Assembly: GCF_018336915.1 (NCBI RefSeq)
Contig: NZ_CP064924.1
Span: 90,001 to 122,000, forward strand
Direction: 5' to 3'
DNA length: 32,000 bases
Origin: Acaryochloris marina S15
GTDB taxonomy: Bacteria; Cyanobacteriota; Cyanobacteriia; Thermosynechococcales; Thermosynechococcaceae
The position numbers and the translations under genes are program-made. Positions 5,266-24,701 of this stretch are shown piece after piece (within the stretch, counting starts at the first letter, position 1; each line of letters starts with the position of its first letter). Below the pieces are notes generated by a model. The model was not told the origin of the DNA, did not search any database, and saw only the letters and a list, made by a program, of their open reading frames with translations.

Positions 5266-6267
5266 TCAGCTCACAAAATAGTCAGCAATATCAGGATTAC
5301 TCTTTTGCAGGCGATCAATCGCATCTTTTAGGAGTTGGCGCACCCGTTCACGACTAATGTCCATTTGACGACCGACTTCAGCCAAGGAACGCTCATTGCC
5401 ATCCAACAAACCATATCGAAGTGTTATGGCCTCTCGCTGTTGGATTGTTAGGATTGCCAATAAAAAATGGATAATACTGGGTAGGGTTTGCTGATTAACA
5501 AATTCTTCTGGCAATGGATCTTCGGATTCAATAAACTCAGCAAGGGAACAATCTTGGTCTTCACCCACTTTTATATCTAATGACAGAGTATGGAATGAGA
5601 GACGAAGATATTCTCTCACTTTTTCAGGGGCAAGGGAGAGGGCTTGAGCAATTTCTTCTGTCGTTGGAATACGGCCTAAAGATTGTGATAATTCCCGCCG
5701 CGTTTTCTTAATCTTATTGAAGTGTTCGGTTAAATAAATGGGTAGCCTGATTGTGCGGCCCTGATCTGCGATCGCGCGGGTAATCCCTTGCCGAATCCAC
5801 CAGTAGGCATAAGTCGAGAAGCGATAGCCTCGCTTTGGATCATATTTTTCCGCTGCTCTGCCTAGACCCAAGGTTCCCTCCTGAATCAGATCCAGGAGCT
5901 CTAAATTACGGTCATTGTATTTTTTGGCAATGACAACAACAAGACGTAAGTTGGCTGTAATCATTTTCTGTTTGGCCTTACGACCCTGCTCAAGCTGCGA
6001 TTCTAGTACTGTTGACTCCAAATGAGCAGCTTGTGCCCAAGTTTGAATTGAAGGCTCAATCCCAGCTTCATTAGTCAACTGGTCCCTCAGATCCAACAAC
6101 GCCATCATCGTTTGAACTTCTCTGCCCAATTGCAATTCTTGGTCTGGAGTTAATAGAGGGTATCGGCCAATGTCACGAAGGTATTGGCGAACATTATCTA
6201 CTGAGTTGTTACGCTTGCTAGCCCGATACTGAGTTAAGGGGTGAGTGACTGGTGTCATGATTGTCAT
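5266..6267 (-). CDS. RNA polymerase sigma-70 family factor, group-2-like (paralog 1)
   Basis: 333 aa. Region 2 is ITANLRLVVVIAKKYNDRNLELLDLIQEGTLGL...GYRFSTYAYWWIRQGITRAIADQGRTIRLP. Region 4 is LRYGL...SLAEVGRQMDISRERVRQL. The stop lies 42 bp upstream of the ATPase start. Confidence 0.92.
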   Translation of the reverse strand: MTIMTPVTHPLTQYRASKRNNSVDNVRQYLRDIGRYPLLTPDQELQLGREVQTMMALLDLRDQLTNEAGIEPSIQTWAQAAHLESTVLESQLEQGRKAKQKMITANLRLVVVIAKKYNDRNLELLDLIQEGTLGLGRAAEKYDPKRGYRFSTYAYWWIRQGITRAIADQGRTIRLPIYLTEHFNKIKKTRRELSQSLGRIPTTEEIAQALSLAPEKVREYLRLSFHTLSLDIKVGEDQDCSLAEFIESEDPLPEEFVNQQTLPSIIHFLLAILTIQQREAITLRYGLLDGNERSLAEVGRQMDISRERVRQLLKDAIDRLQKSNPDIADYFVS

Positions 6268-6645: not shown

Positions 6646-8418
6646 TCAGCGTTTAAAGATGATTTTGAGAAACACTTTAGGGCGTTCTCCACGCCTAAGT
6701 TCTGGTCCTGATCGATTGTTGATACGATTCTTATCAACTTGCCATTTTTTAGCTAGAACTGTTTTAATGGCCTGGAATCGATTAACATTCATCACTGAAC
6801 TTTCCAAGCTTTCCGCTCTAGCTACGATATCTACACTCAACTCAGGTTGCTGTTGTAGAATTTGGCCGACCTGATTCAGTTTCTGTTGATTCTCAGAGGA
6901 GAGGGTGGAAAGATCAAAGTCAAAGGTCAGCTGGTCAGGAGACGTAGGCACTCGCTCTAAAACTATCTGAGCTGTGGGTGTACTTAGACGATTTCGTAAA
7001 TCTTCTCTTAGTAAAGTTTGGGCATCTCGATCAATATCCCGATCACTGAGATAGAAAATTTTAAGGGTGAGGGGAATTATGGCACTGGTGCTAGCTTCAT
7101 GTCGTAAGAGCTGGGCAGGCGTTGGTAGAACCAATTCCCCTAATGCAGTATTCACGGTTTGTAGAAACTTTACTTGAGTCTGAGGAACCGTCAATGGTGG
7201 AGGAGTGCTTGGAGCTATAGGTTCCGGCAACACCTGATCGCCAGATAATTGCGCTAACAGCTTATTCGATGCAGTCAGAATTTCGATCAGCTGGATATCC
7301 AAGGACTCCACTGAACGCCCTAACTGGCGAGCTAAGGTTTCTCTGAAAGTTTGGCGTTCACCGAAAGTATAGGGGTCACTAGTGAATACGGTCAGTTGCA
7401 ACGTCAGTTTGTCATCGGTCGCGGCAGTTATTAACTGGCTTATATAGGATCGGGGTTCTCCTGATGAGGATTTGGCAAACTCTTTTTGCCAAATTGTTGT
7501 GGTCAGGCTTTTCAGTCGATTATCTTCCTGTTTTTGAGCTAACTCTGCCTGTAATCGTAGAAAGGCTTGATTGAGGGGAATTAATAAGAGGACGATCGGG
7601 AGTAACATGACTACTAACCGACTAGGCAAACTGCCAATTTTTTGCAACCGACTAGTTAACGGCAAGCGAGCTAAAAAGGTCTGGACCCATTGGCTTTCGG
7701 GATCTTGAGCATGCCATGAACGAACCTGAGTTTTTACCTCTGGTATGCCTATATTAAGAGCCAGAAACACCAACATGGACATAAAAGTAATTGCCGCTAA
7801 GTTGGTGAGAAACAACAATCCACCTCCTCGGGCAACTTGAAAACCGCTTGTAACAGTAATGTCAGGACTTAATCCAATGCCAATGCCATAACCGACAACA
7901 CAGAGGGGTGGCATGAGTGCCACTGCGATCGCAACACCTGGAATTGACGTAACAACTCCTTTCGGTTCTTTAGCTGTGGCAATCGATCCCAATGCTCCAG
8001 AAAATAACGCAATAAATAAATCTAAGGCATTGGGCTGGGTACGAGCCGCAATCTCAGATGTGAGTTCTTTAAAGGGGATGATGGTAATTATGATTACAGC
8101 AAAAGCAATAGCAACCGTACAGCTCACCGCCAAATTGACAATGGCCCTTGTCCCTAAAATTAAATCGCCAACCGCGAAAGCCAAACCATTGGCTAGAATG
8201 GCACCCATCAGTGGCGAAATCAGCATGGCACCAATAATCACTGCTGGACTATTGAGGACCAAGCCGAAAGTAGCAATGCCTGCTGAAAACAGTACCTGTA
8301 ACCAATAACTGAGATCTCCCAAACTCACTGAATCGAGAAGGCTGTGATAAATTTCTGCTTTGCGGCGAGGACTGATCTCTAGATGATCAGCCAGCCAATT
8401 GCGAAGATGTACTGCCAT
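6646..8418 (-). CDS. DUF389-family integral membrane protein with a long C-terminal soluble extension
   Basis: 590 aa. The N-terminal half carries the DUF389 signature (VIIGAMLISPLMGAILANGLAFAVGD) and multiple TM helices. The C-terminal 270 aa or so are non-hydrophobic. The last 90 aa or so (LTFDFDLSTLSSENQQKLNQVGQILQQQPELSVDIVARAES...) loosely resemble OmpA/MotB-like C-domains; this last resemblance is low confidence. Confidence 0.8.
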   Translation of the reverse strand: MAVHLRNWLADHLEISPRRKAEIYHSLLDSVSLGDLSYWLQVLFSAGIATFGLVLNSPAVIIGAMLISPLMGAILANGLAFAVGDLILGTRAIVNLAVSCTVAIAFAVIIITIIPFKELTSEIAARTQPNALDLFIALFSGALGSIATAKEPKGVVTSIPGVAIAVALMPPLCVVGYGIGIGLSPDITVTSGFQVARGGGLLFLTNLAAITFMSMLVFLALNIGIPEVKTQVRSWHAQDPESQWVQTFLARLPLTSRLQKIGSLPSRLVVMLLPIVLLLIPLNQAFLRLQAELAQKQEDNRLKSLTTTIWQKEFAKSSSGEPRSYISQLITAATDDKLTLQLTVFTSDPYTFGERQTFRETLARQLGRSVESLDIQLIEILTASNKLLAQLSGDQVLPEPIAPSTPPPLTVPQTQVKFLQTVNTALGELVLPTPAQLLRHEASTSAIIPLTLKIFYLSDRDIDRDAQTLLREDLRNRLSTPTAQIVLERVPTSPDQLTFDFDLSTLSSENQQKLNQVGQILQQQPELSVDIVARAESLESSVMNVNRFQAIKTVLAKKWQVDKNRINNRSGPELRRGERPKVFLKIIFKR

Positions 8419-8477
8419 TAAACTGATTCGCCCTTTCTTACAGGAAAGCTAGGATGAACATAAGCTCGATTTAGTGA

Positions 8478-9476
8478 TCAGCTAGCGAGAAAGTCCTGCA
8501 TGCCTTCCTTATGCTTTTGCAGATTTTTAATCGCTTGCTGCTGTATCTGGCGCACTCGCTCTCTACTCACACCCATCCGTCGACCAATGGCCGCGAGCGT
8601 ATGTACCTGTCCGTCAATCAAGCCATATCGAAGAATTAGAACGTCTCGCTGTTGGTTGGGAAGTGAATCCAATAATTGATTGATAGATTGATAAAACAAT
8701 TGCTGTGTAACTAATTGTTCAGGTTGCGGCCCCTCAGATTCTATAAAATCACCCACTGTCTGGTCCTGATCATCACCCACTCTGTGATCGAGGGAAAGCG
8801 TATGTTGAGCGATACGCAAAGACTCTAGAACTTCCTCGACGCCAATTGATAACTCTTTCCCAATCTCTGCCGGTGTTGGACTTCGGCCTAAGGATTGAGA
8901 AAGTTGTCGCTGAGCGCGCTTGATCTTATTAAGCTTTTCAAAACAATGGACGGGGAGGCGAACAGTACGACCTTGTTCCGCAATTGCGCGAGTAATTCCT
9001 TGCCGAATCCACCAATAGGCATAGGTCGAAAATCGATACCCCCGTTGAGGGTCAAACTTTTCAACAGCTCTTGCCAGTCCCAACGTTCCCTCTTGTATGA
9101 GATCGAGAAACTCCAGATTACGGTCTTGGTATTTCTTGGCTATGACAACGACCAAGCGTAGATTGGCAGTGATCATTCTCTGTTTGGCCTGTTGCCCCTG
9201 TGCCAGTTGTTCCTCAAGTAAGCTTATTTCGCACTGAGCTTCCTCAGCCCATATTTGCAAAGAAGGGGCCACTCCAAGGCTTTGAGTCAGCTGTTCTTTG
9301 AGAGCTTGTAGTGACACCATAATCTGAACTTGTCTGCTCAATTGTAATTCTTGGGCATGAGTGAGTAAGGGCACCCGTCCAATTTCCCGCAAGTAAAGAC
9401 GCACATTGTCGGTAACTATTTTCTGTTTTCCAACTCCAGATTGGTTATGTTTGGAGCGTTTGATGAGTTCTGTCAT
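8478..9476 (-). CDS. RNA polymerase sigma-70 family factor, group-2-like (paralog 2)
   Basis: 332 aa. It shares long identical blocks with 5266..6267 (ITANLRLVVVIAKKY, LIQEGTLGL, GYRFSTYAYWWIRQGITRAIA, SRERVRQ). The stop lies 59 bp upstream of the DUF389 start. Confidence 0.92.
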   Translation of the reverse strand: MTELIKRSKHNQSGVGKQKIVTDNVRLYLREIGRVPLLTHAQELQLSRQVQIMVSLQALKEQLTQSLGVAPSLQIWAEEAQCEISLLEEQLAQGQQAKQRMITANLRLVVVIAKKYQDRNLEFLDLIQEGTLGLARAVEKFDPQRGYRFSTYAYWWIRQGITRAIAEQGRTVRLPVHCFEKLNKIKRAQRQLSQSLGRSPTPAEIGKELSIGVEEVLESLRIAQHTLSLDHRVGDDQDQTVGDFIESEGPQPEQLVTQQLFYQSINQLLDSLPNQQRDVLILRYGLIDGQVHTLAAIGRRMGVSRERVRQIQQQAIKNLQKHKEGMQDFLAS

Positions 9477-9627
9477 GAAGTCTTCTCTCTAACATGGAAT
9501 GAAGTTTTGGGAATTTGGACAACAGAGAAAGATAATCGGCTGTGCCTTATCACAAAGCTGAAAAATTACATAACACATCAAAAAATGACTAGCCCAATTT
9601 AAAGCTATGCCTCTATTCATCAGATCC

Positions 9628-10260
9628 TTATCCTGTCGTTTGAAGACATGGGATGTAAGAATCTAGCGATCTGTTCATCTCGTTCCCTATAGCGATGTCG
9701 GGCAAAAGATGAGTGATGCTTCTATTGAGACTCAGACTGCCATGATGATTGGACGTTGATGGAGGGGGAATCGTTCTTTCAATGTCATCTTGATGAATGA
9801 GCCAAAGCCGTCCTTCTTGATATGCTGTTGGCAGCATCTTTTGTAAAACTTTGCAGGAATTATCATCTTCGTTGTGCAACCAGAGGTAATCCAAAACCTT
9901 CCCAGTTTTGGCATTGAAACGATAATCAACCAGATGTCCCACATTCTTCCCAGAACAGTCTCGGATTGGATCGCCAAGTTGATAGTCCACTGAAAGTGTA
10001 GGTTGAACTACAAATAAAGAATCATCAGAAACGGTCACCCAAATCCCTATTTCGTCAACAGCTTCCACATCTTCCCAAGGAAGAGATTGCAAGGTTTTAT
10101 CCCAGTGCCATGAGCGATAAGTAAGTCCAAATACTTGGTGTTGATCTTTATCAAGCCAAATTTGTTCTACCCGGCCTAGAACTTTGCCGGTTTCAGCATC
10201 TAAGACCGAGTAGTTTAGAAGGGATTTGAAAAATACAACTTGGATAGAAGACAAAACCAT
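9628..10260 (-). CDS. PRC-barrel-like domain protein (two repeats)
   Basis: 210 aa with a GGAGGAG Shine-Dalgarno just upstream. Two segments fit the PRC-barrel pattern: LLNYSVLDAETGKVLGRVEQIWLD and LGDPIRDCSGKNVGHLVDYRFNAKTGKVLDYLWL. The family call is by pattern resemblance. Confidence 0.55.
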   Translation of the reverse strand: MVLSSIQVVFFKSLLNYSVLDAETGKVLGRVEQIWLDKDQHQVFGLTYRSWHWDKTLQSLPWEDVEAVDEIGIWVTVSDDSLFVVQPTLSVDYQLGDPIRDCSGKNVGHLVDYRFNAKTGKVLDYLWLHNEDDNSCKVLQKMLPTAYQEGRLWLIHQDDIERTIPPPSTSNHHGSLSLNRSITHLLPDIAIGNEMNRSLDSYIPCLQTTG

Positions 10261-10334
10261 AGTTCTCCTCCATTAGGAGCAAATAAAGCAGAATAATCTA
10301 ATAGAAGAATTTTTCGACTCGATTGATCTAATTA

Positions 10335-10460
10335 TTAAGAGGTAGATCGATGGCTATAGACTAGGATGGCTTGACAAGAAATACGGATCAATAGAGTAAT
10401 CGAAACCCATTCAGCAATGACCAAACACAGCAAACCAATTGCTAAAAACCAAAGACTCAT
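10335..10460 (-). CDS. Possible 41-aa hydrophobic peptide (below the ORF-track cutoff)
   Basis: Manual translation gives MSLWFLAIGLLCLVIAEWVSITLLIRISCQAILVYSHRSTS*. An AAGGA lies 2 nt upstream of the ATG (taAGGAtcATG). It sits between the kinase and the PRC-barrel gene on the same strand. There is no homology support. Confidence 0.3.
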   Translation of the reverse strand: MSLWFLAIGLLCLVIAEWVSITLLIRISCQAILVYSHRSTS

Positions 10461-10639
10461 GATCCTTAGAAGGTTAAAACCCACCGGAGGTTGAATATAA
10501 TCGGCCTATGTCTAATAAAGACGTTGGAAGATGTGATTTGAGAGAACTTCAAGATCGGTTGTAATAATGCAGTATTCCTATTTAATTTCAAAGCTTGTTT
10601 AAACACATCCATCCTATGTCTTTAAATCAAGATTGCAAC

Positions 10640-11773
10640 TCATCCATTTGGACTAGTCCGCAAGGGTAGTCGTACAGTCATATTCGTTCCTTGATCCACT
10701 GCACTACTAACTTCAATATGTCCGTTGTGGAGTTCTACACATTGTTTGACAATTGCAAGTCCTAGACCGCTTCCCGGTAATCGTCCAACATTGGCTGCTC
10801 GATAAAATGGTTCAAATAGATGTTGTTGATCCTCCCAGGGAATCCCAATCCCTGAATCTTGGACTTGAAATTCAATCTGGCTTTCAAGGTAGGCAAGTCG
10901 TAACTGGACCTCATCCCCATCAGGTGAGTACTTGATCGCATTCGTCAGTAAGTTTCCCAAAATGTATCGTAATAATTTTTGATCTATGACTAGAGACTGC
11001 GATGTATCACAGGCATTTTTTACCTCAAATTCAAGGCGACAAGACTGAGTCGAACTGTATTTAACTTCCTCAATCAAGCGACGGCAAAATAGCTCTAAGT
11101 CTAGAGCTTCGGGTTCATAGGTGAGCTTACCTACCCCCACTCGACCCATCACTAACACATCATCCACTAATGAAGTTAGTCGCTTCAAAGAGTCTCGTAT
11201 ATGTTGGAAAAAATCCTGCGTTTTCTCTGTTGAGAGAGTGTTGCCCCGACCTTCCAGTAACTGGATATATCCAGAAATAGCGCCCAAGGGATTACGAAAT
11301 TCATGGGACACCATAGAAACAAACTGTGATTTAAGCCGATTTAGCTCTTGTAGCTCTTCATTGGCTTGCCGCAATTGAGCATTGGCCTGTTGTAGCTCTA
11401 TAGAGAACTGTCGAGTCCGTAAAAGAGTCTCCACTCGTACTTGGAGTGCGGCGATCTCAATAGGAGCAGTGACAATTTCTTCAATTACCTGCCAATACTG
11501 AGGTTTAATCGTGCTAACTTTTCCTTGGCCTACTATCAGCAGCACAGGTAAAAGTACGGGTTGTTGGGCTGATCTGAAATCCGCAATGGGTTGCCAAAGT
11601 TGTTCGAGCATTTGACCATCAACAATACATAGATCAAAGAACTCTTGCAGTAATTCATGGGACGAGTGCTTCTCTTCAGATGATACCGAGATAACTTCAT
11701 GCCGTTCAGATAACTTCTCTGAGACGAATTTACTATTGGCAGATCTAGCAAATAACAATAAGATTCGAGCCAT
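10640..11773 (-). CDS. Histidine kinase with an N-terminal pseudo-receiver domain (PsR-coiled coil-HisKA-HATPase)
   Basis: 377 aa. H-box SHEFRNPL, N-box LGNLLTNAIKYS, G1 VQDSGIGI, G2 GSGLGLAIV. The N-terminal 120 aa or so have a receiver-like beta/alpha pattern (ILLLFARS..., DLCIVDGQM, LLIVGQG) but lack the DD acidic pair and the conserved Lys. Confidence 0.88.
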   Translation of the reverse strand: MARILLLFARSANSKFVSEKLSERHEVISVSSEEKHSSHELLQEFFDLCIVDGQMLEQLWQPIADFRSAQQPVLLPVLLIVGQGKVSTIKPQYWQVIEEIVTAPIEIAALQVRVETLLRTRQFSIELQQANAQLRQANEELQELNRLKSQFVSMVSHEFRNPLGAISGYIQLLEGRGNTLSTEKTQDFFQHIRDSLKRLTSLVDDVLVMGRVGVGKLTYEPEALDLELFCRRLIEEVKYSSTQSCRLEFEVKNACDTSQSLVIDQKLLRYILGNLLTNAIKYSPDGDEVQLRLAYLESQIEFQVQDSGIGIPWEDQQHLFEPFYRAANVGRLPGSGLGLAIVKQCVELHNGHIEVSSAVDQGTNMTVRLPLRTSPNG

Positions 11774-11882
11774 TGATTTACTGGGAAGATGTCCTAGATG
11801 ATTTATTGGTTACTAAGGAATAGAGTGATAGACCTCTCAATCGTTATACTTCTCTAGTGCCATCATCTCGCAAATACACATT

Positions 11883-13382
11883 TTGAGTAGTCCTGTGACC
11901 AAAAGTTCTAAGAAGAAACAGACTAGTAAAACGCGGTTATCAACAGGGATATCTGGCCTAGATGAAATTCTCAATGGTGGACTCATAGCTAATCGGGCTT
12001 ATTTAGTGCGCGGGGGGCCAGGGACAGGTAAAACGACTTTAGGACTGCACTACTTAACCCACCAGCTGCCCAAGGGGAAATCATCCCTGCTCATCTGTTT
12101 TGGTGAACCGGGTCACCAAATCCTAGAAACTGGATCTGACATGGACTTAGATCTAGAGTCCGTCAGTTGTCTGGATCTCAGTCCTGACTCAGCTTTTTTT
12201 ACGGAGTCACAAACCTACGATTTTTTTAGCCCTGCTGAAGTGGAAAAAGATCCGATCACCCAGAAAATTGTGGATCAAGTGACGAAGTTGAAGCCAGACC
12301 GAATCTTTGTCGATTCGATGACGCAATTTCGCTACATCACTGCAGATACCTTTCAGTTTCGCAAGCAAGTATTAGCGTTTATCCGCTTTATTCTTGGCCA
12401 AGGTGCAACGGTCGTTTTTACATCAGAATGCAGTCCAGAAGAACCTGATTATGATCTGCAGTTCATGAGTGATGGGGTGATTAACTTGGGAATTACACCT
12501 ACACGGCGTACTGTTGGCATCTCCAAATTCCGCAGCTCAGGATTTCAAGCAGGAAATCACTCTCTGCGGCTTGGCCCCAAAGGCATGTCTGTCTTTCCCA
12601 AGTTATTACCTGAAGCTTACAAACGTAATTTTCAACCTGAACCCCTCCCATCAGGCATTCCCGCCCTCGACAAAATGCTCCGAGGTGGCATTGAACGAGG
12701 CATGGTGACGCTATTTAGAGGGCCGAGTGGGGTAGGCAAAACCACTATTGGTCTTCAGTTCATGAAGGAAGCAGCAAGCCGTATGGAACGGTCTGTCGTC
12801 TTTACTTTTGAAGAAGATGTAGAAATTATTCTTCGACGTTCAGAAAAGCTAAAAATCCCAGCACGGGTGATGACGGAGGAAGGGTCTTTAGCTATTGTCA
12901 AAATTGAGCCCTTGCAATACACTCCCGATGAGTTTTCCAGTATTGTTCGCCATGAGGTTGAGGAGAATCATATACGTATTGTCATGATTGATAGCATCTC
13001 GGGCTATAACCTCTCCATGCAAGGAGAAGATTTTCTATCTCACCTACATGCATTGTGTAAATATCTAGCCAATATGGGGGTTGCAGTAATCCTCATCAAT
13101 GAAACGGCATTATTAGATGAAGATGATAAAGGAACTGCTGATAGTTTCACTTATCTAGCCGATAATCTAATCTTGCTGAGATATGTCGATCGTCATGAAG
13201 ATGGCAAGGTCGAACTACGAAAGAGCATTGGTGTCATCAAAAAGCGGTTAAGTGATTTTGAAAAAACCTTAAGGGAACTGAAGATAACACAGTACGGTGT
13301 GGAAGTGGGTCCACCCCTGACGGGACTTCAAGGAATTTTTGATGGCGATATCATCAAGTCTGAAGATGACGATGATGTTTGA
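11883..13382 (+). CDS. KaiC-like double RecA/KaiC-domain ATPase
   Basis: 499 aa. There are two KaiC-type domains, each with Walker A (GGPGTGKTTLG; GPSGVGKTTIG) and Walker B (RIFVDSMT; IVMIDSIS). The C-terminal block TADSFTYLADNLILLRYVD aligns with the KaiC phosphosite region. The start is ambiguous (TTG 11883 or GTG 11895). Confidence 0.88.
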   Translation: MSSPVTKSSKKKQTSKTRLSTGISGLDEILNGGLIANRAYLVRGGPGTGKTTLGLHYLTHQLPKGKSSLLICFGEPGHQILETGSDMDLDLESVSCLDLSPDSAFFTESQTYDFFSPAEVEKDPITQKIVDQVTKLKPDRIFVDSMTQFRYITADTFQFRKQVLAFIRFILGQGATVVFTSECSPEEPDYDLQFMSDGVINLGITPTRRTVGISKFRSSGFQAGNHSLRLGPKGMSVFPKLLPEAYKRNFQPEPLPSGIPALDKMLRGGIERGMVTLFRGPSGVGKTTIGLQFMKEAASRMERSVVFTFEEDVEIILRRSEKLKIPARVMTEEGSLAIVKIEPLQYTPDEFSSIVRHEVEENHIRIVMIDSISGYNLSMQGEDFLSHLHALCKYLANMGVAVILINETALLDEDDKGTADSFTYLADNLILLRYVDRHEDGKVELRKSIGVIKKRLSDFEKTLRELKITQYGVEVGPPLTGLQGIFDGDIIKSEDDDDV

Positions 13383-14489
13383 TTAGGCAGGAATACGGAC
13401 CTTAAAACTGCTGCCTTTCCCCACTTGAGATTGCAACTCCACCGTACCTTGATGGGCCGCGACGATTTGACGGACTAGGTTCAGTCCCAACCCATTTCCC
13501 GAACAGCGATGATTACCTTGGAACTCCCGTTCAAAAACGATGGGCTGCTCGTCAGGAGAGATGCCACAGCCAGTATCTTCCACTCTCATTATTAGAGAAT
13601 TGTCTTGTTTTTCCAATTGAATCTGGATGGAACCTGTATCGGTAAATTTAATTGAATTACCCACGAGATTCGTAATGACTCTTCTTAGCTCTAACCGTGC
13701 ACCTGATAGATGAAAATCATGATTCAAATTGGTGTTGGACTTGGTCACTATCTTTAACTCAAGTCCCTTCTCTTCAGCCAGTGGTCTCAGTTCTTCAATC
13801 ACTGACTCCGTTAGTTGTTTTACATCGAAGGTCGTATAAGCTAAAGCTTTTTGGCCCGCTTCATATTTATAAATTTCAAGTAATGTATTGGTCATTTGCA
13901 ACAGATCAGAATTGCTGTCTTTCATGGTGGCAATCACTTTCTGGCAAGGATCCGGGATGGTTCCATATTTCCCACGCTCCACTAAGGTAAACATCCGATC
14001 TGCAGCCACGAGAGGAATACGTAAATCATGAGTAAGGCGATAGACAAACTCTTCCCTCATTACTGTCATTTGTTCTCGCTCATCAATACTATGTTTCAGA
14101 CGCAACAGGGAGCGAACCCGAGCCAACAACTCCGTAATCTCAACGGGTTTTTTAATGAAATCATCGGCCCCTGCATCAAGTCCTTCCACTACATCCGATT
14201 GCTCTTGGGCGGTGATCAGCAATATCGGGATAAAGGGCAAGTCTTTTTGCTTGCGAATCTGTCGAGTTAGCTCTGTACCATTCATTCCCGGCATCATGAC
14301 GTCCGATAAGACTAAATGAGGCAATGACATTTGAAACTGTTCGAGGGCGACTTGGCCATTCTCGGCTAAGCTCACCTGATAACCCTCCGTTTCTAGAACG
14401 GCTTGAATAAAGCAAAGATTTTCATAAGCATCATCAACCACTAAGATATGGACTTGTTGATCAACTGGATAGGGAGAAGTGACGTTCAT
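13383..14489 (-). CDS. Hybrid response-regulator/histidine kinase (REC-HisKA-HATPase)
   Basis: 368 aa. The receiver is canonical (VVDDAYEN, LVLSDVMMPGMNG, LLITA, FIKKP). H-box THDLRIPL, N-box ITNLVGNSIKFT, G1 VEDTGCGI, G2 GNGLGLNLV. A GAGG Shine-Dalgarno lies upstream. Its stop codon abuts the KaiC-like stop codon. Confidence 0.9.
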   Translation of the reverse strand: MNVTSPYPVDQQVHILVVDDAYENLCFIQAVLETEGYQVSLAENGQVALEQFQMSLPHLVLSDVMMPGMNGTELTRQIRKQKDLPFIPILLITAQEQSDVVEGLDAGADDFIKKPVEITELLARVRSLLRLKHSIDEREQMTVMREEFVYRLTHDLRIPLVAADRMFTLVERGKYGTIPDPCQKVIATMKDSNSDLLQMTNTLLEIYKYEAGQKALAYTTFDVKQLTESVIEELRPLAEEKGLELKIVTKSNTNLNHDFHLSGARLELRRVITNLVGNSIKFTDTGSIQIQLEKQDNSLIMRVEDTGCGISPDEQPIVFEREFQGNHRCSGNGLGLNLVRQIVAAHQGTVELQSQVGKGSSFKVRIPA

Positions 14490-14624
14490 AGGGGTGCCTC
14501 AGCAAGCTATAGTCTTGATTCTCTAAGGGATGTGGCATACTGAATGAAAGTTCCACTAGTGTATCCGACAACCTTCAGTATCCGCGTCGTCCTATTGGAC
14601 TAATCTCTATAGACATAATGGTTC

Positions 14625-15356
14625 ATGAATATCATCCGCATCGTAATTATTGAAGACCATACCCTTACCAGAATGGGATTGCTGGGAGCATTGGAGGAGC
14701 AAGATAATTTTGAAGTTGTAGGGGAAGCAGCTACGGGTAGTGAGGGATTAAAGCTGCTAGAAGACATACAGCCAGATGTCGCTATTGTCGATATTGGACT
14801 GCCTGATTTTGATGGCATTGAACTAGTTCAGCGATTTAGAAAAGTGCAATCAGAGGGTGAAGGTGCAGCCACCAAGGTCCTTATTTTGACAATGCACCAT
14901 CAGGAAGTTGAAGTACTGGCTGCATTTGCGGCTGGCGCAGATTCCTACTGTGTAAAAGATACTGATATTGAGCTATTGGTTGAGGCCGTGAGTACTACTG
15001 CTGAAGGGCATTCATGGATCGATCCTGCAATTGCCAGCATTGTGCTTGAGCAGGCTCGCAAAGGGCATTTAGAAGGCACTACGACCACAAATTATAAAGG
15101 TGAATTAGATGCTGTCACCATTCATGGTTTAGATCCTGACAAAGCTCAACTTCTTCAAACTTCGCCCTTGACGGAGAGAGAGCTAGAAGTTCTTGAACTA
15201 ATTGTGGGAGGACATAGCAATACTGCGATCTCAGAATCCCTATTTATGAGTATGGGTACGGTGAAAACTCACGTTCGCAATATCTTAAGTAAACTCTGTG
15301 CAAGCGATCGGACAGAGGCAGCTGTTAGAGCCCTTCGAGCTGGTTTGGTTAAATAA
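14625..15356 (+). CDS. NarL/FixJ (LuxR-type HTH) response regulator
   Basis: 243 aa. The receiver shows IIEDH, VAIVDIGLPDFDG, LILTMH and YCVKD. The C-terminal LuxR HTH is LTERELEVLELIVGGHSNTAISESLFMSMGTVKTHVRNILSKL. The linker is unusually long, about 55 aa. Confidence 0.92.
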   Translation: MNIIRIVIIEDHTLTRMGLLGALEEQDNFEVVGEAATGSEGLKLLEDIQPDVAIVDIGLPDFDGIELVQRFRKVQSEGEGAATKVLILTMHHQEVEVLAAFAAGADSYCVKDTDIELLVEAVSTTAEGHSWIDPAIASIVLEQARKGHLEGTTTTNYKGELDAVTIHGLDPDKAQLLQTSPLTERELEVLELIVGGHSNTAISESLFMSMGTVKTHVRNILSKLCASDRTEAAVRALRAGLVK

Positions 15357-15555
15357 ATCCTCTTGGAGCTTAGACATTTACTGGAGCTAGGCGGAAGGGG
15401 TGTCGGCCTAAACGTTTTGCTTTTTGAACACGTTCATGATTTATAGAATCAAATGAACCAAATTTCTAGGTTTCATAAAATTGCTACAGATTATTTACGC
15501 TTTCAGTCTGTTTTGCTATTAAGTTTCTATCTCAGTCTATGGATTCGTAATCACA

Positions 15556-16665
15556 TCAAACCGGCTCAACATAGCTCAGGAGTAGCTGAATCATACCTGA
15601 GATCGCCGATAAGGATGCCGTTTCAGTCGCCGTATGGTACTCCGTCGTCGGAATCTGCAGCGTTGTCCCATTAATCGCCCCATCAGTTGCCGAAACTACT
15701 CGTCCCAATTCAGTCCGACCCAGGGGATAGGGCTTTTCACGAGTCTCATTCTGGATCGCAATATATTCATCTTTAAACCCATAGGACAGCCCGAACTCTT
15801 CACAGCGCTTCACTAATTCTTGAGTCATGGTTGGGGAAAATGGGCCATTAGCATCTTTATGGCGCAACGTAATCTGCTGAGCATCTGCATCTTCACGGGT
15901 GGCATAGGGACTGGTATCGAGGACTATCAGTCGCTGGGTGGTCAGACACTGTCGTTGAAACCAGGACAACGTATACCGCCAACTGCGTCCAGTCTCCTCT
16001 TGGGCGGTGAATAGCCCAGTCCCTTGAAACCCCTGTCGGAACAGATAGATCAACATTGCAGCACTGACAACGTTATCCAGTTGGGCCGAAATTAGTCCAT
16101 CTTCAATCTGTAGCCGATCCAAAAAAGAAACAGGCGTTCCTGGCTGGAGAAAATCCAGTCCATCCACTTCAAAAATCAGGTTATTCCGTTCTGGGCAAAT
16201 GTAGGAGTGCGTAATTTCGCCTTGGCCTAAATAGGTGCCAGTATAGGGAAAATGAGCCTGCACCCGCTGTCCTTGAAAGCGATCTTCAATGGTGTGAAGT
16301 AAATGCTCGGATGCAGAGTCTCCCATGTTCTCACCCTGGTTCCCAGCAATGAAGGCTGCATATTGAAACTCATTCGGTCCAGTACAAAGGAGTCCATGAC
16401 GATCGATATGGGCAGAAAAGAATAAGCTATGGGGTCGATTTCCCTGGGCAACCAATACGCCATGATAGTGCTGTACCTCAATCCCGATTTCTTCTAATTC
16501 ACGTCGCAAGACCCGGAAAAAAGAGTCTTCGTTACCAACCACTGAAGGTTCTCGAATCAGTGGCTTCAGGATATCTAAGAACTGACTAACCTCCGGGTAA
16601 GTATATCCTGCAGTCGCCACTGGCATCAATACATCCTTCCGACCTAACAAATCTAGATATTCCAT
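15556..16665 (-). CDS. M42-family (TET/glutamyl-aminopeptidase-like) metallopeptidase
   Basis: The track ORF starts at TTG 16698, but the ATG at 16665 (MEYLDLL...) is preceded by AGGAG with 7-nt spacing, so I prefer it. Putative metal ligands occur in M42 order: SAHIDRHG, LDNVVSAA, AQEETGR, VLDTSP, TEYHTATE. Confidence 0.7.
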   Translation of the reverse strand: MEYLDLLGRKDVLMPVATAGYTYPEVSQFLDILKPLIREPSVVGNEDSFFRVLRRELEEIGIEVQHYHGVLVAQGNRPHSLFFSAHIDRHGLLCTGPNEFQYAAFIAGNQGENMGDSASEHLLHTIEDRFQGQRVQAHFPYTGTYLGQGEITHSYICPERNNLIFEVDGLDFLQPGTPVSFLDRLQIEDGLISAQLDNVVSAAMLIYLFRQGFQGTGLFTAQEETGRSWRYTLSWFQRQCLTTQRLIVLDTSPYATREDADAQQITLRHKDANGPFSPTMTQELVKRCEEFGLSYGFKDEYIAIQNETREKPYPLGRTELGRVVSATDGAINGTTLQIPTTEYHTATETASLSAISGMIQLLLSYVEPV

Positions 16666-18409: not shown

Positions 18410-18664
18410 CACGGTTATGGATCATGGATGAACAAGGGAGCTGCACATACCTGAAGAGACAGAAGTCAAGCATGTAGTTGCCAGATTGCAGAAAATTTTA
18501 CTTGAAGAACTGGAAAAGCATCAGTGGCCTGTCACCTTCAGCATGGGAGTATTAATCTTTGAATATCCCCCCAGTTCTGTTGATGAGCTGATTCAATCTG
18601 CCGATCAACTCATGTATGAAGCCAAAGATGCGGGCAAAAACGCGGTCGCCTATTCAAATACTAA
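18410..18664 (+). pseudogene. 3' fragment of a GGDEF-domain gene (paralog of 1331..2227), 5'-truncated and cut by an IS at its 3' end
   Basis: LHIPEETEVKHVVARLQKILLEELEKHQWPVTFSMGVLIFEYPPSSVDELIQSADQLMYEAKDAGKNAVAYSN aligns with LHIPEETEVKHIVARLQKILLEEMEKHQWPVTCSMGVLIVEYTPNSIDELIQAADKLMYTAKSAGKNAVAYAN of the intact gene. Homology decays upstream of about 18410. An IS terminal repeat starts at 18665. Confidence 0.85.
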
Positions 18665-19793
18665 CCCAGGGCTGTTTCATTCTCATAGAGCCGTTGATAT
18701 GGTAGGGAGTCAGCCCCAATATCCTGAGCCTCCCGAATGCCTGAAATTGCTATTGTCGAAGCCTTTTGCGATCTGCCTGACAATCGTCGCGCTAGAGGGC
18801 GAAGACACACTCAATCGTTATGTTTAGCCCTATTCACCCTTGCAGTAGCCGCAGGCAATCGTGGATTCCTCGCCATCGGAGATTGGTTAAAGGCATACCA
18901 TGCTCAATTGGTTACTTTGTTTGCCCCTCATAAAGGCCGTTTACCTTCCTACAGTACAATTCGGCGTACCTTGTTGCGGATAGAGTATCTCTCGTATGGA
19001 GAGTGTTTATCTCGGTTTTTCGAGATTAAGCCCTTGCCTGGAGAAACAATTGCGACTGACGGAAAGTACTGCGTGGGTCATATGAAGCCATCAGTGATGA
19101 CCCAAGGTTAGACTCGCATCCAGCGATAATGCTCGTCAGTGCTTATATTGTTGAACGAGGGCTGATTCTGGAACCTTATGAGGTTGACTCGAAAACGAAC
19201 GAGATCACCGCGCTTCCTGCATTTATTGAACAGTTGGCACTCAAGGGTGTCGTATTTGCATTTGATGCAATCAGTACCCAAAAAAAACAGCCCAGACGAT
19301 TATAGATAGTGGCAATAATTATCTAGGAGCACTCAAGGGAAATCAATCTGGATTACTTAAAGGCGTCGAAGCTGAATTTAAAGCTCAACAGACAATAAAG
19401 CAAATAAACAAGGGACATGGACGTATTGAAAAAAGGACAATCAGTATCAGTCATGACTTAGCTGGTATTCCTGCGTTTCCGGGGTTACAAAGCATAATTC
19501 GTATCGTCTCCGAGCGCCAAATCTATCGAGCTAATATCGTTGAAAGCTCTACAGAGACTCGTTACTACGTTGCTTCATTTGTGGAGCCTGTGCAAGTTCT
19601 TGCTGACCGAATTCGTGGATATTGGGGAGTCGAAAATAAGGTACATCATGTTCGAGATGTGACTCAAGCACAACGATTAGCTGGCTTTAGCTTAGACAAC
19701 TTAAAGTCCTTGTTTAAGATGACATAACCCTATATTCAAAAGTCCAAGAAGTCATGCATAGAAAGTCTTTCAGATAAATGAAACAGCCCTGGG
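18665..19793 (+). mobile_element. ISAs1-family insertion sequence (about 1.13 kb)
   Basis: The terminal inverted repeats are cccagggctgtttcatt (18665-18681) and aatgaaacagccctggg (19777-19793). It encodes an H-repeat/ISAs1-type transposase. I could not recognise a target-site duplication. Confidence 0.8.
18737..19727 (+). pseudogene. ISAs1-family (H-repeat-associated) transposase, disrupted
   Basis: The N-terminus FCDLPDNRRARGRRHTQSLCLALFTLAVAAGNRGFLAIGDW is the ISAs1 signature. The frame breaks at the A3 run 19063-19065 and the A8 run 19280-19287. Manual reading in the shifted frames continues: LRGSYEAISDDPRLDSHPAIMLVSAYIVERG..., then AQTIIDSGNNYLGALKGNQ...RIRGYWGVENKVHHVRDVTQ. The C-terminal region also appears to have an internal deletion. 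Confidence 0.8.
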
Positions 19794-20257
19794 ATTCTAT
19801 CAGCCATGACATCACCCTTTATTCAGAAAAAAATGCTTTCCCATTTTTAGTAAAAAAATCCCCTATTAATTATTCATTTGTAAAAGTTGTCAGGGCACTG
19901 GTCTTCTAAAACTACAAGGCAAAAGTCGTTTTTCTGCAAGAGTTTCAGATAAAATGGAGGCAGAAGCCTTGAATGCGGATTCAATAAGGCCTAAAGACTA
20001 TAGATTCTGTTACGCAGCTAGTGCATTAGGTTCAAGTACTAGTTCGTGGAAATATTGGAAGGATTTTGCTAAAAAGTCCAGGCACTCGGATTGCTGGGGA
20101 CTGACGAGAGACAATTTAAGAAGAGGAGAAGGTGGACGCAGCAGTATGAGTGGCATTTCAACATCAATAATAAGCTGAAACTTCATACTATTATTGACTA
20201 GCATTAACGGACATTCCCCTTAGAAGAAATTTGAAATTACTATTGGTGGGAAATCTT

Positions 20258-21048
20258 ATGGGAGCTTATTCGAAAACTGCTTTAATTGTCAGCATTATTC
20301 TCGGAATAGCAGGAACTGGTCTATTTACTCAATCGCAATCTAAATCAGTTAAAATCTCACTTTCTTCAGACCCTGTTCAAAATTATTAGAAGAAGGAAAA
20401 GAGCAAGCGAAGCAGGGAAACTATCAAAAAGCTATTTACCATTATAATCAAGCCCTTCAAGAAAATCCTCAATATCTAACAGCATTTATTTATAGAGGAA
20501 TTGCCTATCATGATTTAGGTGAATATCAAGTTGCGATTAAAGACTTCAATCATGCTTTAAGAATTAATCCAGATCACCCGATTGCACTATACAACCGAGG
20601 AGAATCACGCTCTGATATAGGCGATTTCGACGGGGCCATTATTGATTTAACTAAAGCGATTCAGTTAAAGCCAAACTATGCTGAAGCATACAACGTTCGA
20701 GCAATAATATTTGGTTCAGTGCAAGGAGAATGGAAGATGGCATTGATGGATCTAAATCAAGCCATCCGCTTTCAGCCAGATTATGCTGATGCATATTATA
20801 ACCGTGGGAGAACTTATGCAGCAATGCAAAACGCTTCCCAAGCGATTTCGAATTATACAAAAGCTATAAAGCTAAATGCAGAATTAGCTGAGGCATACGG
20901 AAATAGAGGTCTGATTAAAGCCCAAACTGGGGATAAAAATGGTGGATTAGTTGATTTACAGCACGCGGCTGATCTTTTCCAGAAGCAAGGAGATTTGGGA
21001 AATTATCAGCATACGGTATTGAGGATTCAACAAATAAAGCAAAATTAA
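20258..21048 (+). pseudogene. TPR-repeat protein with an N-terminal hydrophobic anchor, split by one frame change
   Basis: The ATG at 20258 opens a 43-codon frame (MGAYSKTALIVSIILGIAGTGLF...) that stops at 20387. The TPR frame is open from 20353 but has no ATG/GTG/TTG before 20719. Adding one A to the A4 run 20379-20382 joins them (..SSDPVQKLLEEGKEQAKQGNYQKAIYHYNQAL..). There are at least 5 TPR units (AxxxYNRG). Confidence 0.75.
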
Positions 21049-21277
21049 TCTCTTAAGGAAAAGTGACTGCTGACCACAAGCTAGATGTAGGTAATGACAT
21101 ACCCCAGAATCAACCGATCGGACTAGTCCAAAAGGAGGATGGAGATGCAATAAATTTCATCCTCTCTGCTGATGGTGAGTTTAAGTAATTTTGCTTCAAT
21201 GAAGATACGGTTTCAACAATCTTGTGGGTTGCCAGATTACAGCTTTACTCAAGCCATTTATTATAAGAGATTGAACC

Positions 21278-21801
21278 ATGTTTTCTAGCCGTCCCACTCA
21301 ATGGATTCTTAGCACTACTTTCCTCGTAAGCAGCCTGGCCCTAGTTGGTTGCCAATCTATTCAGGCTAGACCTAATAGTGATTCTTCTCAAACAAATCCT
21401 GCGGCAATCCTCCAGCCTGGGAAAAATCAATCCCAAGATTACCTGATGACAGGGATTCAAAAGCCTTTACCGAAGACTATGTGGGTGCGATTGAAGCCTA
21501 TGATCTAGCGATTCAATTAACAACCTCGAATTCGGAAGTTTATTACAATCGTGGTGTTGCGTATTTCTCAATTGGTCAGACTGACAATGCGATCAAGGAT
21601 TTTAACCGTGCCATCGAACTAACTCCCACTATGGCTGAAGCTTATGGCAATCGCGGTACGATTCGTCTGCTGATGAATGATCGTCAAGATGCCTTATCTG
21701 ATTTCCAGACAGCTGCTCAGTTATTTGACGCACAAGAAGATCATACCTCTGCAAACATGATGCGTGGGTTGATTGAGCAAAACAAGACTCAGCCCTTATA
21801 G
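21278..21801 (+). pseudogene. TPR-repeat lipoprotein, split by one frame change
   Basis: The N-terminus has a signal peptide and lipobox (LALVGC). Adding one A to the A4 run 21459-21462 joins ..DYLMTGIQK to AFTEDYVGAIEAYDLAIQL... (track ORFs 21278..21508 and 21481..21801). Confidence 0.75.
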
Positions 21802-21981
21802 AATTTTGAAACTCCCTTCAGTATTGGCCACCAGGCGAAATAACATTCATCTCCCTCCCATCTGTAATCACCTTTAGATCATGACTCATACACTCTCTCA
21901 GGCAGTAGGGTGTTCCTCATCTACCCCAAAAATCACAAAACTCTCATGGTGGAAATCTGTTAGACCCTGAGATACCTATCC

Positions 21982-22086
21982 TATGATTTGGGCATTGACT
22001 TGGGTACTTCCAATACTTTGATGCACAGTTCTCATCAAGAAATCGTGTTGTAAGAATCCTCTGTTATTGCGATCAATTCAACAACT
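21982..22086 (+). pseudogene. mreB-like (actin-fold ATPase) N-terminal stub
   Basis: Manual translation gives YDLGIDLGTSNTLMHSSHQEIVL*ESSVIAINSTT*. This matches the MreB N-terminal phosphate-1 pattern (DLGIDLGTANTLVY..GIVLNEPSVVAI). It has an in-frame TAA, no start codon and no continuation. Confidence 0.45.
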
Positions 22087-22285
22087 TAAATGAAAATATC
22101 AGTGCTGAGTGTCTTAGATTATCATTCTCAATATTATTGACTATTGAATGCAGTTTTTCTGACATTGACACGAGGAATTAACTTTTTCAAGAACTGAATT
22201 TTTCTAAAATTCTCAATCAAAATTCTGGATACTTCAGTACTAACACTTTTCTGATTTGAACAGTATCCCCAATTATTAGAGGTAA

Positions 22286-23924
<1,639 letters not shown>

Positions 23925-24652: not shown

Positions 24653-24701
24653 ATCGTAAGCGACCATGGTCGCTTACGATGCAATGCATTACTATTGCAT
24701 C
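24653..24701. terminator. Two adjacent hairpins between convergent genes (possible bidirectional terminator)
   Basis: A 28-bp perfect palindrome, atcgtaagcgaccatggtcgcttacgat, spans 24653-24680. It is followed by gatgcaat-N8-attgcatc (24678-24701), which overlaps the kinase stop codon. There is no clear U-tract. Confidence 0.4.

Follow-up and report, generated by a model that had tools for sequence, protein, structure and literature searches.

We analysed a 32,000-nucleotide stretch of the genome of Acaryochloris marina S15 (contig NZ_CP064924.1, positions 90,001 to 122,000; hereafter the window), where the gene for a KaiC-like ATPase lies in a cluster with genes for two histidine kinases (HKs) and a response regulator. 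We found that the conserved unit is the pair formed by the ATPase and the kinase PsR-HK, which carries a pseudo-receiver (PsR) at its N-terminus, and that the linkage between the two genes crosses phyla and is essentially absolute. The ATPase is not a clock KaiC. The cluster is an instance of the known class of KaiC-like ATPases encoded with two-component proteins, and it represents a lineage-specific rewiring of a widespread module: in the four-gene form a stand-alone receiver is replaced by a receiver-kinase fusion (REC-HK) and a NarL-type regulator, which constitute a lineage-specific output.

A sequence-only reading of the window had described four intact genes in alternating orientation (<- -> <- ->) around two divergent gaps of 109 and 135 bp. 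Open reading frame (ORF) and Pfam analysis placed the genes exactly where that reading had put them, with gaps of the same sizes. PsR-HK (also HK1), a soluble histidine kinase of 377 amino acids (aa), is encoded at 10640-11773 on the minus strand, the KaiC-like double-domain P-loop ATPase (499 aa) at 11883-13382 on the plus strand, REC-HK (368 aa) at 13383-14489 on the minus strand and the NarL/FixJ-type response regulator (243 aa) at 14625-15356 on the plus strand. The divergent intergenic regions lie between PsR-HK and the ATPase gene (11774-11882, 109 bp) and between REC-HK and the regulator gene (14490-14624, 135 bp). On near-identical contigs, the ATPase gene is called from a start four codons further on, GTG 11895 (495 aa), in which case the first gap is 121 bp. 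The domain calls for all four proteins, pseudo-receiver included, were borne out by Pfam, profiles and AlphaFold2, and no transmembrane-like segment was found in the four proteins (maximum Kyte-Doolittle 19-residue average <1.6). PsR-HK is 100% identical to one Acaryochloris marina protein (P0124). Among annotated records, the nearest was found on a plasmid of Acaryochloris sp. 'Moss Beach' with 83% DNA identity, which carries the same four genes and a sigma factor gene and was the sole match in a search of the plasmid database. The convergent stop codons of the ATPase gene and REC-HK touch at 13380-13385 with 0 nt between them, and likewise in locus L001; such a junction has no space for a terminator, so that convergent transcription must collide or read through.

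For the synteny scan we used one genome per species and found at least 471 loci with relatives of the ATPase, of which the best 80 of 471 were analysed. A histidine kinase gene whose product aligned to PsR-HK from residue 1-3 adjoined the ATPase gene in 77 of the 80 loci; the adjoining kinase of one further locus (L021) aligned from residue 42, making 78/80, and in the remaining two the contig ends just past the ATPase gene. These paired loci were distributed over many cyanobacterial orders, the Ktedonobacteria and Anaerolineae (Chloroflexota) and one deltaproteobacterial metagenome-assembled genome, and a search from the kinase side confirmed the pairing in Stanieria PCC 7437 and Pseudanabaena FACHB-2040. 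The two genes are usually arranged ATPase -> HK on the same strand. In about 57 of the 80 loci, a gene for a single-domain receiver of ~122 aa stands between them (L011:8485-8850, L034:8915-9286, L062:8459-8827, L168:3633-3998 and ~53 other loci). A hidden Markov model (HMM) of this stand-alone receiver, whose consensus is ILAVDRNxRNLELL...LALVDISGFD...PFLVISP...MLVKPL, scored 165-200 bits for 55 of the ~57 loci. The three genes of Stanieria PCC 7437 have overlapping or abutting ends, and Pfam identified Response_reg in the product of the middle one. A two-gene form, in which the kinase gene follows the ATPase gene after a 3-nt gap, was found in Pseudanabaena FACHB-2040 among others. One Anaerolineae locus (L020) carries a second, distant KaiC-like gene (14195-15448, 25% identity) ~6 kb downstream, beside receiver and NarL-like genes.

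The four-gene form was seen, among the loci analysed, only in the window, L001-L004, L005-L008, L010 and L012, and in L009 with the last two genes inverted. It thus occurs in eight further distinct loci (L001, L005-L008, L010, L012 and L009), L002-L004 being further contigs with the L001 arrangement. The same four genes in the same orientations across eight further loci indicate that the arrangement is not due to chance. These loci belong to Acaryochloris, Thermosynechococcaceae, Xenococcaceae and some Leptolyngbyaceae, with ATPase identities of at least 59%. Scattered orthologues had been set beforehand as the result that would speak against the cluster; the orthologues of the four genes proved syntenic in related genomes, within one subclade. 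What did not hold was the idea of the four genes as one self-contained unit, since REC-HK and the NarL-type regulator are specific to this lineage and the conserved unit is the pair. REC-HK and the regulator occurred only in loci without the stand-alone receiver, and 13 two-gene loci have neither. The stand-alone receiver was absent from the four-gene loci, where the best match of its HMM was the receiver of REC-HK (31-34 bits), a generic resemblance. The receiver of REC-HK was also considered as an orthologue of the 122-aa receiver and rejected (34 bits vs 165-200 bits for true members). In two of the four-gene loci, the junction between the ATPase gene and REC-HK has been invaded, by an IS-like (insertion sequence-like) transposase fragment and an Hsp20 gene in L005 (8493-9444) and by a TnpB-like ORF in L008 (4100-4993); the cluster was kept together in both despite the insertions.

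We identified PF06745 in two stretches of the ATPase (E=1.8e-66), corresponding to two tandem KaiC P-loop domains, with no effector domain detected by Pfam beyond the two KaiC halves. The protein aligned over its full length with KaiC structures, both by phmmer (E=1e-46 to 1e-32) and with a family profile (E=1e-69 to 1e-58). Its best NCBIfam matches were KaiC models, and the scores stayed below the curated KaiC cut-offs (PRK09302, 212 vs 408 bits; TIGR02655, 125 vs 546 bits). A competing identity, that of a RecA/RadA-type DNA-repair protein with incidental two-component neighbours, draws on the name 'recombinase RecA' that the source gives to P0001 and P0027 and on weak RecA, RadA and DnaB matches around the Walker A region. 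It is effectively refuted by the alignment of both domains with KaiC structures over the full length (E=1e-46 to 1e-69), by a RadA/Sms score of 65 bits against a cut-off of 403, by the lack of any zinc-finger, Lon or DNA-binding module in the ATPase, and by the presence of PsR-HK beside the ATPase gene in every informative locus. The placement of the protein in the double-domain KaiC family, and not with RadA/Sms, therefore stood.

Residues were mapped through an alignment with Synechococcus elongatus KaiC, and conservation was counted over 82 family sequences. The Walker A pairs are K50/T51 in the CI half and K286/T287 in the CII half. The Walker A lysines K50 and K286, the Walker B residues D144 and D370, the arginine-finger positions R217, K453 and R455, and the CII glutamates E310-E311 were all invariant (82/82). 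This invariance of the ATPase residues in both halves argues for selection to keep the enzyme an active NTPase. The CII pair E310-E311 matches KaiC E318-E319. The paired CI glutamates of KaiC (E77-E78) have no such counterpart, because CI keeps only the second, catalytic glutamate: KaiC E77 is replaced by G74 in G74-E75, and position 74 was G, A or S in 82/82. Likewise, the dual phosphosite S431-T432 of KaiC is T423-Y424 here, with Tyr at 424 in 82/82 and Ser/Thr at 423 in 81/82. The chain ends at residue 499, which aligns at about KaiC 493-500 of 519, so that it stops ~20 residues short and lacks the KaiA-binding C-terminal tail. The strongest family-specific conservation was found in a motif, Y112-D-x-F-S-P-A-E-V-E121...P124, which reads Y112-D-F-F-S-P-A-E-V-E121 (on to P124) in the window (12216-12245, plus strand) and forms invariant columns in the alignments. 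The motif overlies KaiC F121-S124 in the B-loop segment of CI and makes this segment 8 residues longer. In clock KaiC, the B-loop segment is the docking site of fold-switched KaiB and of SasA. We propose that the Y112-E121 motif is a candidate docking surface for the partner kinase.

The closest characterised protein is LbKaiC2 (LBWT_17950) from Leptolyngbya boryana, which forms a hexamer or pentamer and has a low, temperature-dependent ATPase activity with no autophosphorylation detected (Matsukami et al. 2024, PMC11680916). It shares 25.7% identity with KaiC, has no C-terminal extension, and is followed after 3 nt by a histidine kinase gene, LBWT_17960; its authors left the function open and suggested a group distinct from KaiC1/2/3 (PMC11680916). 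LbKaiC2 and the window ATPase have the same single CI glutamate (E69 and E75), the same CII glutamate pair (E304-305 and E310-311) and the same single Ser/Thr phosphosite (S417 and T423), all three sites being offset by a constant 6. The window family also has no C-terminal extension, ~26% identity to S. elongatus KaiC and an adjacent kinase gene. On these residue offsets and the gene context, the window ATPase is a member of the LbKaiC2-type family. The L. boryana locus has the two-gene, same-strand form, like Pseudanabaena FACHB-2040, whereas the window has a divergent PsR-HK together with REC-HK and the NarL-type regulator.

Pfam assigned HisKA and HATPase_c to PsR-HK and left residues 1 to ~130 without assignment; residues 1-129 gave no Pfam match even at E<=10, and PF00072 itself failed. 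As Pfam was silent, the fold of this domain (residues 1 to ~125, nt 11399-11773) was established by profile and structure instead. A profile of 30 orthologous N-termini matched solved receivers, with PleD in first place (E=1e-12) and dozens of OmpR/PhoB and CheY receivers behind it, and hhalign related the domain to the genuine receiver of REC-HK (probability 89%, E=2.5e-6). An AlphaFold2 model (41-sequence alignment, pLDDT 82) showed an N-terminal (beta-alpha)5 domain whose fifth helix (alpha5, 107-176) continues unbroken into the DHp helix. Apart from D52, the active-site residues expected of a receiver are lost in the window protein, which has A9-R10 in place of the acidic pair, V81 in place of the Thr and A103 in place of the Lys. 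With A9, R10, V81 and A103, the domain should be incapable of acting as a normal phospho-acceptor. Across the orthologues, position 10 was acidic in 0/79 and the Lys was present in 17/79. Judged by these residues, the domain is clearly degenerate in the window protein and atypical across the family, in agreement with the earlier call of a pseudo-receiver at the N-terminus.

An exhaustive search with the N-terminal domain against 1.84 billion representatives returned 595 clusters, 200 of them at E<=1e-10. In nearly all 595 the domain occupied residues 1 to ~120 of proteins of 350-1150 aa, almost always kinases, indicating a discrete N-terminal subfamily and not generic receivers. A word-indexed search with the 148-aa N-domain gave 3 matches, a figure that reflects the limit of the index, not of the family. 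Homology of the pseudo-receiver to the KaiA N-domain was considered and rejected (hhalign probability 0.1%); the domain appears from these comparisons to be a derivative of an ordinary receiver. The parallel that had been drawn with the pseudo-receivers of KaiA and CikA thus holds as an analogy and not as a relationship to the KaiA N-domain. The kinase core of PsR-HK has an H-box His157 and intact N, G1 and G2 boxes. Pfam found neither a PAS nor a GAF domain in the window protein, which also has no transmembrane segment. Longer orthologues, of ~510-525 aa, occur in Calothrix, Gloeocapsa, Chroococcidiopsis and relatives (L015-L019, L022, L023, L026, L027, L035, L039 and L062), where a PAS-sized insertion of ~130 residues separates the pseudo-receiver from the DHp helix. 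PAS Pfam matches were seen in related proteins of ~520 aa, which suggests that some lineages add a second input domain.

REC-HK showed Response_reg, a weak HisKA and HATPase_c in Pfam. Its N-terminally fused receiver is of the phosphorylatable type and complete (D19, D20, D63, T93 and K114; nt 14112-14447), followed by DHp His154, N/G1/G2 boxes and a catalytic domain, with no input domain other than the receiver. Orthologues were present in every locus of the four-gene subclade. A metagenome scan with REC-HK was swamped by the generic receiver motif DVMMPGMN; full-length relatives reached <=33% identity, with higher values over the receiver part only. The regulator has a complete receiver (E10, D11, D56, T89 and K111; PF00072, E=2.7e-22), a ~58-aa linker and a GerE helix-turn-helix at 181-236 (PF00196, E=7.2e-19). 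Its best NCBIfam models were MadR (146 bits) and NarL (134 bits), both under cut-off (NarL 250). By its domains it is thus assigned to the NarL/FixJ family and is not an equivalog of NarL itself.

The cluster resembles the clock output KaiC-SasA/CikA-RpaA in its parts, namely a KaiC-family hexamer, two histidine kinases, one of them with a pseudo-receiver, and one DNA-binding regulator. However, the window lacks KaiA and KaiB, the regulator is NarL-type instead of OmpR-type, and neither the dual phosphosite nor the A-loop tail is present in the ATPase. PsR-HK is not SasA: its N-domain has a receiver fold and not a KaiB-like one, and it scored 146 bits against a cut-off of 342 for PRK09303, which we take to be the SasA model. 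Nor is it CikA, as it has no GAF domain and its pseudo-receiver is N-terminal, whereas that of CikA is C-terminal; it is also unrelated to the pseudo-receiver of KaiA. We conclude that this is not a clock because the ATPase fails four defining tests of a clock KaiC and the kinases fail those of SasA and CikA. The window ATPase matched the PDB 8dba chain, deposited as 'Circadian clock protein KaiC', at 98 bits and is only distantly related to it. The earlier statement that no kaiA or kaiB lies near the cluster was upheld: in tblastn with S. elongatus KaiA and KaiB as queries, the best match in the 32-kb window had E=2.8 and none of 84 related loci gave one at E<=1e-3, and Pfam showed neither among the larger neighbouring ORFs. 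The KaiBC hourglass systems of Rhodobacter sphaeroides and Rhodopseudomonas palustris likewise have a KaiA-less KaiC homologue and an operon-encoded kinase (PMC4794148), but they keep KaiB and a phosphorylation cycle, whereas the window family lacked KaiB in the 84 loci and is only distantly related.

The sequences give the gene content, the predicted catalytic competence of every domain, the degeneracy of the pseudo-receiver and the cross-phylum linkage of the ATPase and PsR-HK; from these we infer the physical contact between the two proteins, the input signal, the target genes, and the direction of phosphotransfer with the sequence of its steps. We propose, with about even confidence, a KaiA/KaiB-independent module in which a KaiC-family hexamer would be the input device of a sensor-less histidine kinase, followed by a relay. 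The KaiC-like protein would slowly hydrolyse ATP, and its state may shift with the ATP/ADP ratio, temperature or phosphorylation of T423. PsR-HK would read this state through its pseudo-receiver, whose probable contact on the CI ring is the extended B-loop motif. As alpha5 of the pseudo-receiver is continuous with DHp in the model, binding of the KaiC-like protein would switch autokinase/phosphatase activity at His157. From PsR-HK the phosphoryl group would pass, in most lineages, to the 122-aa single-domain receiver; in the Acaryochloris-type lineage it would pass to D63 of REC-HK in place of the stand-alone receiver, and REC-HK would then control the NarL-type regulator (His154 -> D56) and hence transcription. 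A linear relay is favoured by two features, in that the sole input of REC-HK is a complete receiver and the sole other kinase in the conserved cluster is PsR-HK. The 'KaiC-gated phosphorelay' of the sequence-only reading is to be taken in this conditional sense.

Several points weigh against this proposal. The wider PsR-HK family keeps E/D9 in 69/79, D52 in 77/79 and T81 in 68/79, so the N-domain might still accept a phosphoryl group elsewhere, and its coupling to the ATPase would then be indirect. Given that LbKaiC2 showed no autophosphorylation, a clock-like readout of phospho-state is doubtful, and the state that is read may be the nucleotide-bound conformation only. The linear order PsR-HK -> REC-HK -> NarL-type regulator is only one of several topologies that fit the data, and the DHp specificity residues differ between clades and allow no partner assignment. 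Moreover, scans for sigma-70 promoters and terminators over 8300-15700 gave counts equal to those of shuffled controls. The retained D52, together with E/D9 and T81 in most orthologues, also speaks for a different arrangement, in which the N-domain of PsR-HK is controlled by a small ligand (quinone or c-di-GMP, as in the pseudo-receivers of CikA, KaiA and ShkA) or by residual D52 phosphorylation, and the KaiC-like protein is a downstream effector or a chaperone-like partner. Ligand-binding pseudo-receivers are documented (PMC12632262), and GGDEF genes lie within the window. We consider this arrangement unlikely: neither the metal-binding acidic pair nor the Thr or Lys is present in the window protein, the ATPase has no domain beyond its two KaiC halves that could serve as effector, the linkage is specifically to the ATPase and conserved across phyla, and the GGDEF genes are not conserved neighbours.

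The wiring downstream of PsR-HK could also be branched. PsR-HK and REC-HK would then share the NarL-type regulator as their target, with one of them working chiefly as its kinase and the other chiefly as its phosphatase, like SasA and CikA on RpaA, and the receiver of REC-HK would be a phosphate sink or feedback port. The presence of two kinases and one DNA-binding regulator in the cluster fits this wiring, as does the SasA/CikA/RpaA precedent, and single-domain receivers of Pseudomonas have been proposed as phosphate sinks (bioRxiv 10.1101/2022.01.26.477890). Nevertheless, the three-gene lineages link only the stand-alone receiver, with no DNA-binding regulator, which indicates that the ancestral partner of PsR-HK was this receiver and that the receiver of REC-HK replaced it positionally. 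The comparison of DHp specificity did not discriminate between the topologies. On this evidence we regard branched wiring as rather doubtful and keep the linear relay as the preferred reading. A precedent for a kinase feeding a receiver-kinase is provided by LvrA/LvrB of Leptospira, where LvrB, which is fed by an upstream kinase, has the same REC-DHp-CA architecture and size (~370-380 aa) as REC-HK (PDB 8vc9). LvrA/LvrB differ from the window cluster in having no KaiC-like component and in belonging to an unrelated lineage. LvrB (8vc9) also matched the PsR-HK model structurally over its full length, in a Foldseek search with the whole model in which kinase cores dominated the matches; the LvrB receiver is phosphorylatable, unlike the degenerate one of PsR-HK.

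The module had been described as not characterised, and this was correct only in part. The published work on LbKaiC2, which shares the diagnostic residues, covers its purification and assay and mentions the kinase gene next to it (PMC11680916), and modules of a KaiC-like protein, a kinase and a response regulator have been published for Pseudomonas. The KaiC-like proteins of P. putida and P. protegens bind the neighbouring kinase through its N-terminal domain, a precedent for the contact proposed here, and the modules have a non-circadian, stress-related role (Terrettaz et al., bioRxiv 10.1101/2022.01.26.477890). As in the window, a KaiC homologue without KaiA and KaiB is found virtually always beside a kinase and often beside a single-domain receiver. 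The coupling domain there is PAS, however, while it is a pseudo-receiver in the window; the Pseudomonas proteins have one or two phosphorylated sites, belong to a different KaiC subgroup, and have no described REC-HK and NarL output. The paper on LbKaiC2 (PMC11680916) does not describe a pseudo-receiver, a B-loop motif, a single-domain receiver or the phylogenetic spread. Judged by the literature searched, four elements are new: the pseudo-receiver as the signature coupling domain of the LbKaiC2-type family, the invariant motif in the B-loop region, the three-gene operon with a stand-alone receiver, and the Acaryochloris-type swap of this receiver for REC-HK and a NarL-type regulator.

There are far more KaiC homologues than true clocks, and what most of them do is unknown. 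The present results tie a large KaiC-like family (at least 471 species-level genomes with the motif) to a dedicated kinase whose sole input domain is a degenerate receiver, and the invariant surface motif on the ATPase is a likely contact between them. The 'function unknown' of LbKaiC2 thereby becomes a signalling hypothesis of two or three proteins. The two-, three- and four-gene forms are natural variants in which to study the gating of two-component signalling by a slow ATPase in the absence of KaiA and KaiB. Among them, a linked transcription factor was found only in the Acaryochloris form, which is therefore the best place to start looking for the regulon. A broader and more tentative idea, which we consider possible at best, is that the pair is a widespread means of reading out a KaiC-family hexamer without KaiB, by direct use of its extended invariant B-loop. 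The pair might then be a non-circadian sensor of energy, temperature or elapsed time in Cyanobacteria and Chloroflexota, rewired in Acaryochloris to a kinase-to-kinase cascade that ends in a NarL-type factor. If this were true, the docking of receiver-fold domains on KaiC-family rings would be a recurrent solution (compare the pseudo-receivers of KaiA and CikA), and the ATPase and PsR-HK would serve as a simple model, with just two proteins, for a possible origin of clock output coupling.

In the non-coding DNA of the cluster, the gap on the ATPase side contains a -10-like TATACT followed by TCTCTAG (11845-11857, plus strand), a block that recurs in L001 and L005 and partly in L008 and L010. 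Three conserved blocks were identified in the gap between REC-HK and the regulator gene, GGCATACT (14534-14541), CCACTAGTGTATCCGAC (14553-14569) and CCTATTGGACTAA (14591-14603), all conserved in five loci (the window, L001, L005, L007 and L010). No k-mers were shared between the two divergent gaps, and a common operator is thus not supported. Rfam and tRNA scans of the window were empty.

The other sizeable ORFs of the window encode, according to Pfam, GGDEF proteins, a P-type ATPase, two sigma-70 factors, DUF389, PRC-barrel and M42-like peptidase proteins, and PsiE. The two sigma-70 genes are paralogous (regions 1.2-4; 5266-6267 and 8478-9476, minus strand), lie on the strand of PsR-HK and flank the gene for the DUF389 membrane protein. 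The nearer one, for a group-2-like factor (8478-9476), is located downstream of PsR-HK on the same strand, with the PRC-barrel gene (9628-10260) between them. A sigma gene adjoins PsR-HK in L001-L004 and is nearby in L005, but not in L007-L012; the nearer one is also beside the cluster on the 'Moss Beach' plasmid, and the linkage is found only within Acaryochloris. It is possible that the gene at 8478-9476 is a target of the cluster or co-regulated with it. Further along the window, the region from 18486 on appears to be decaying, with IS remnants: a C-terminal GGDEF fragment (18486-18827) is followed by short transposase-like pieces (18737-19111 and 19129-19305), and 19112-22291 contains no ORF >=110 aa save small TPR-like ORFs. 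GroEL/Cpn60 is broken at 22292-23924 into three consecutive ORFs (130, 120 and 317 aa; profile positions 1-99, 112-209 and 238-489) and looks like a frameshifted pseudogene. Separate ORFs on the minus strand at 24692-27418, encoding Cache (26813-27418), HAMP-PAS (26041-26478) and HATPase_c-REC (24692-25582), look like fragments of one decayed hybrid sensor kinase.

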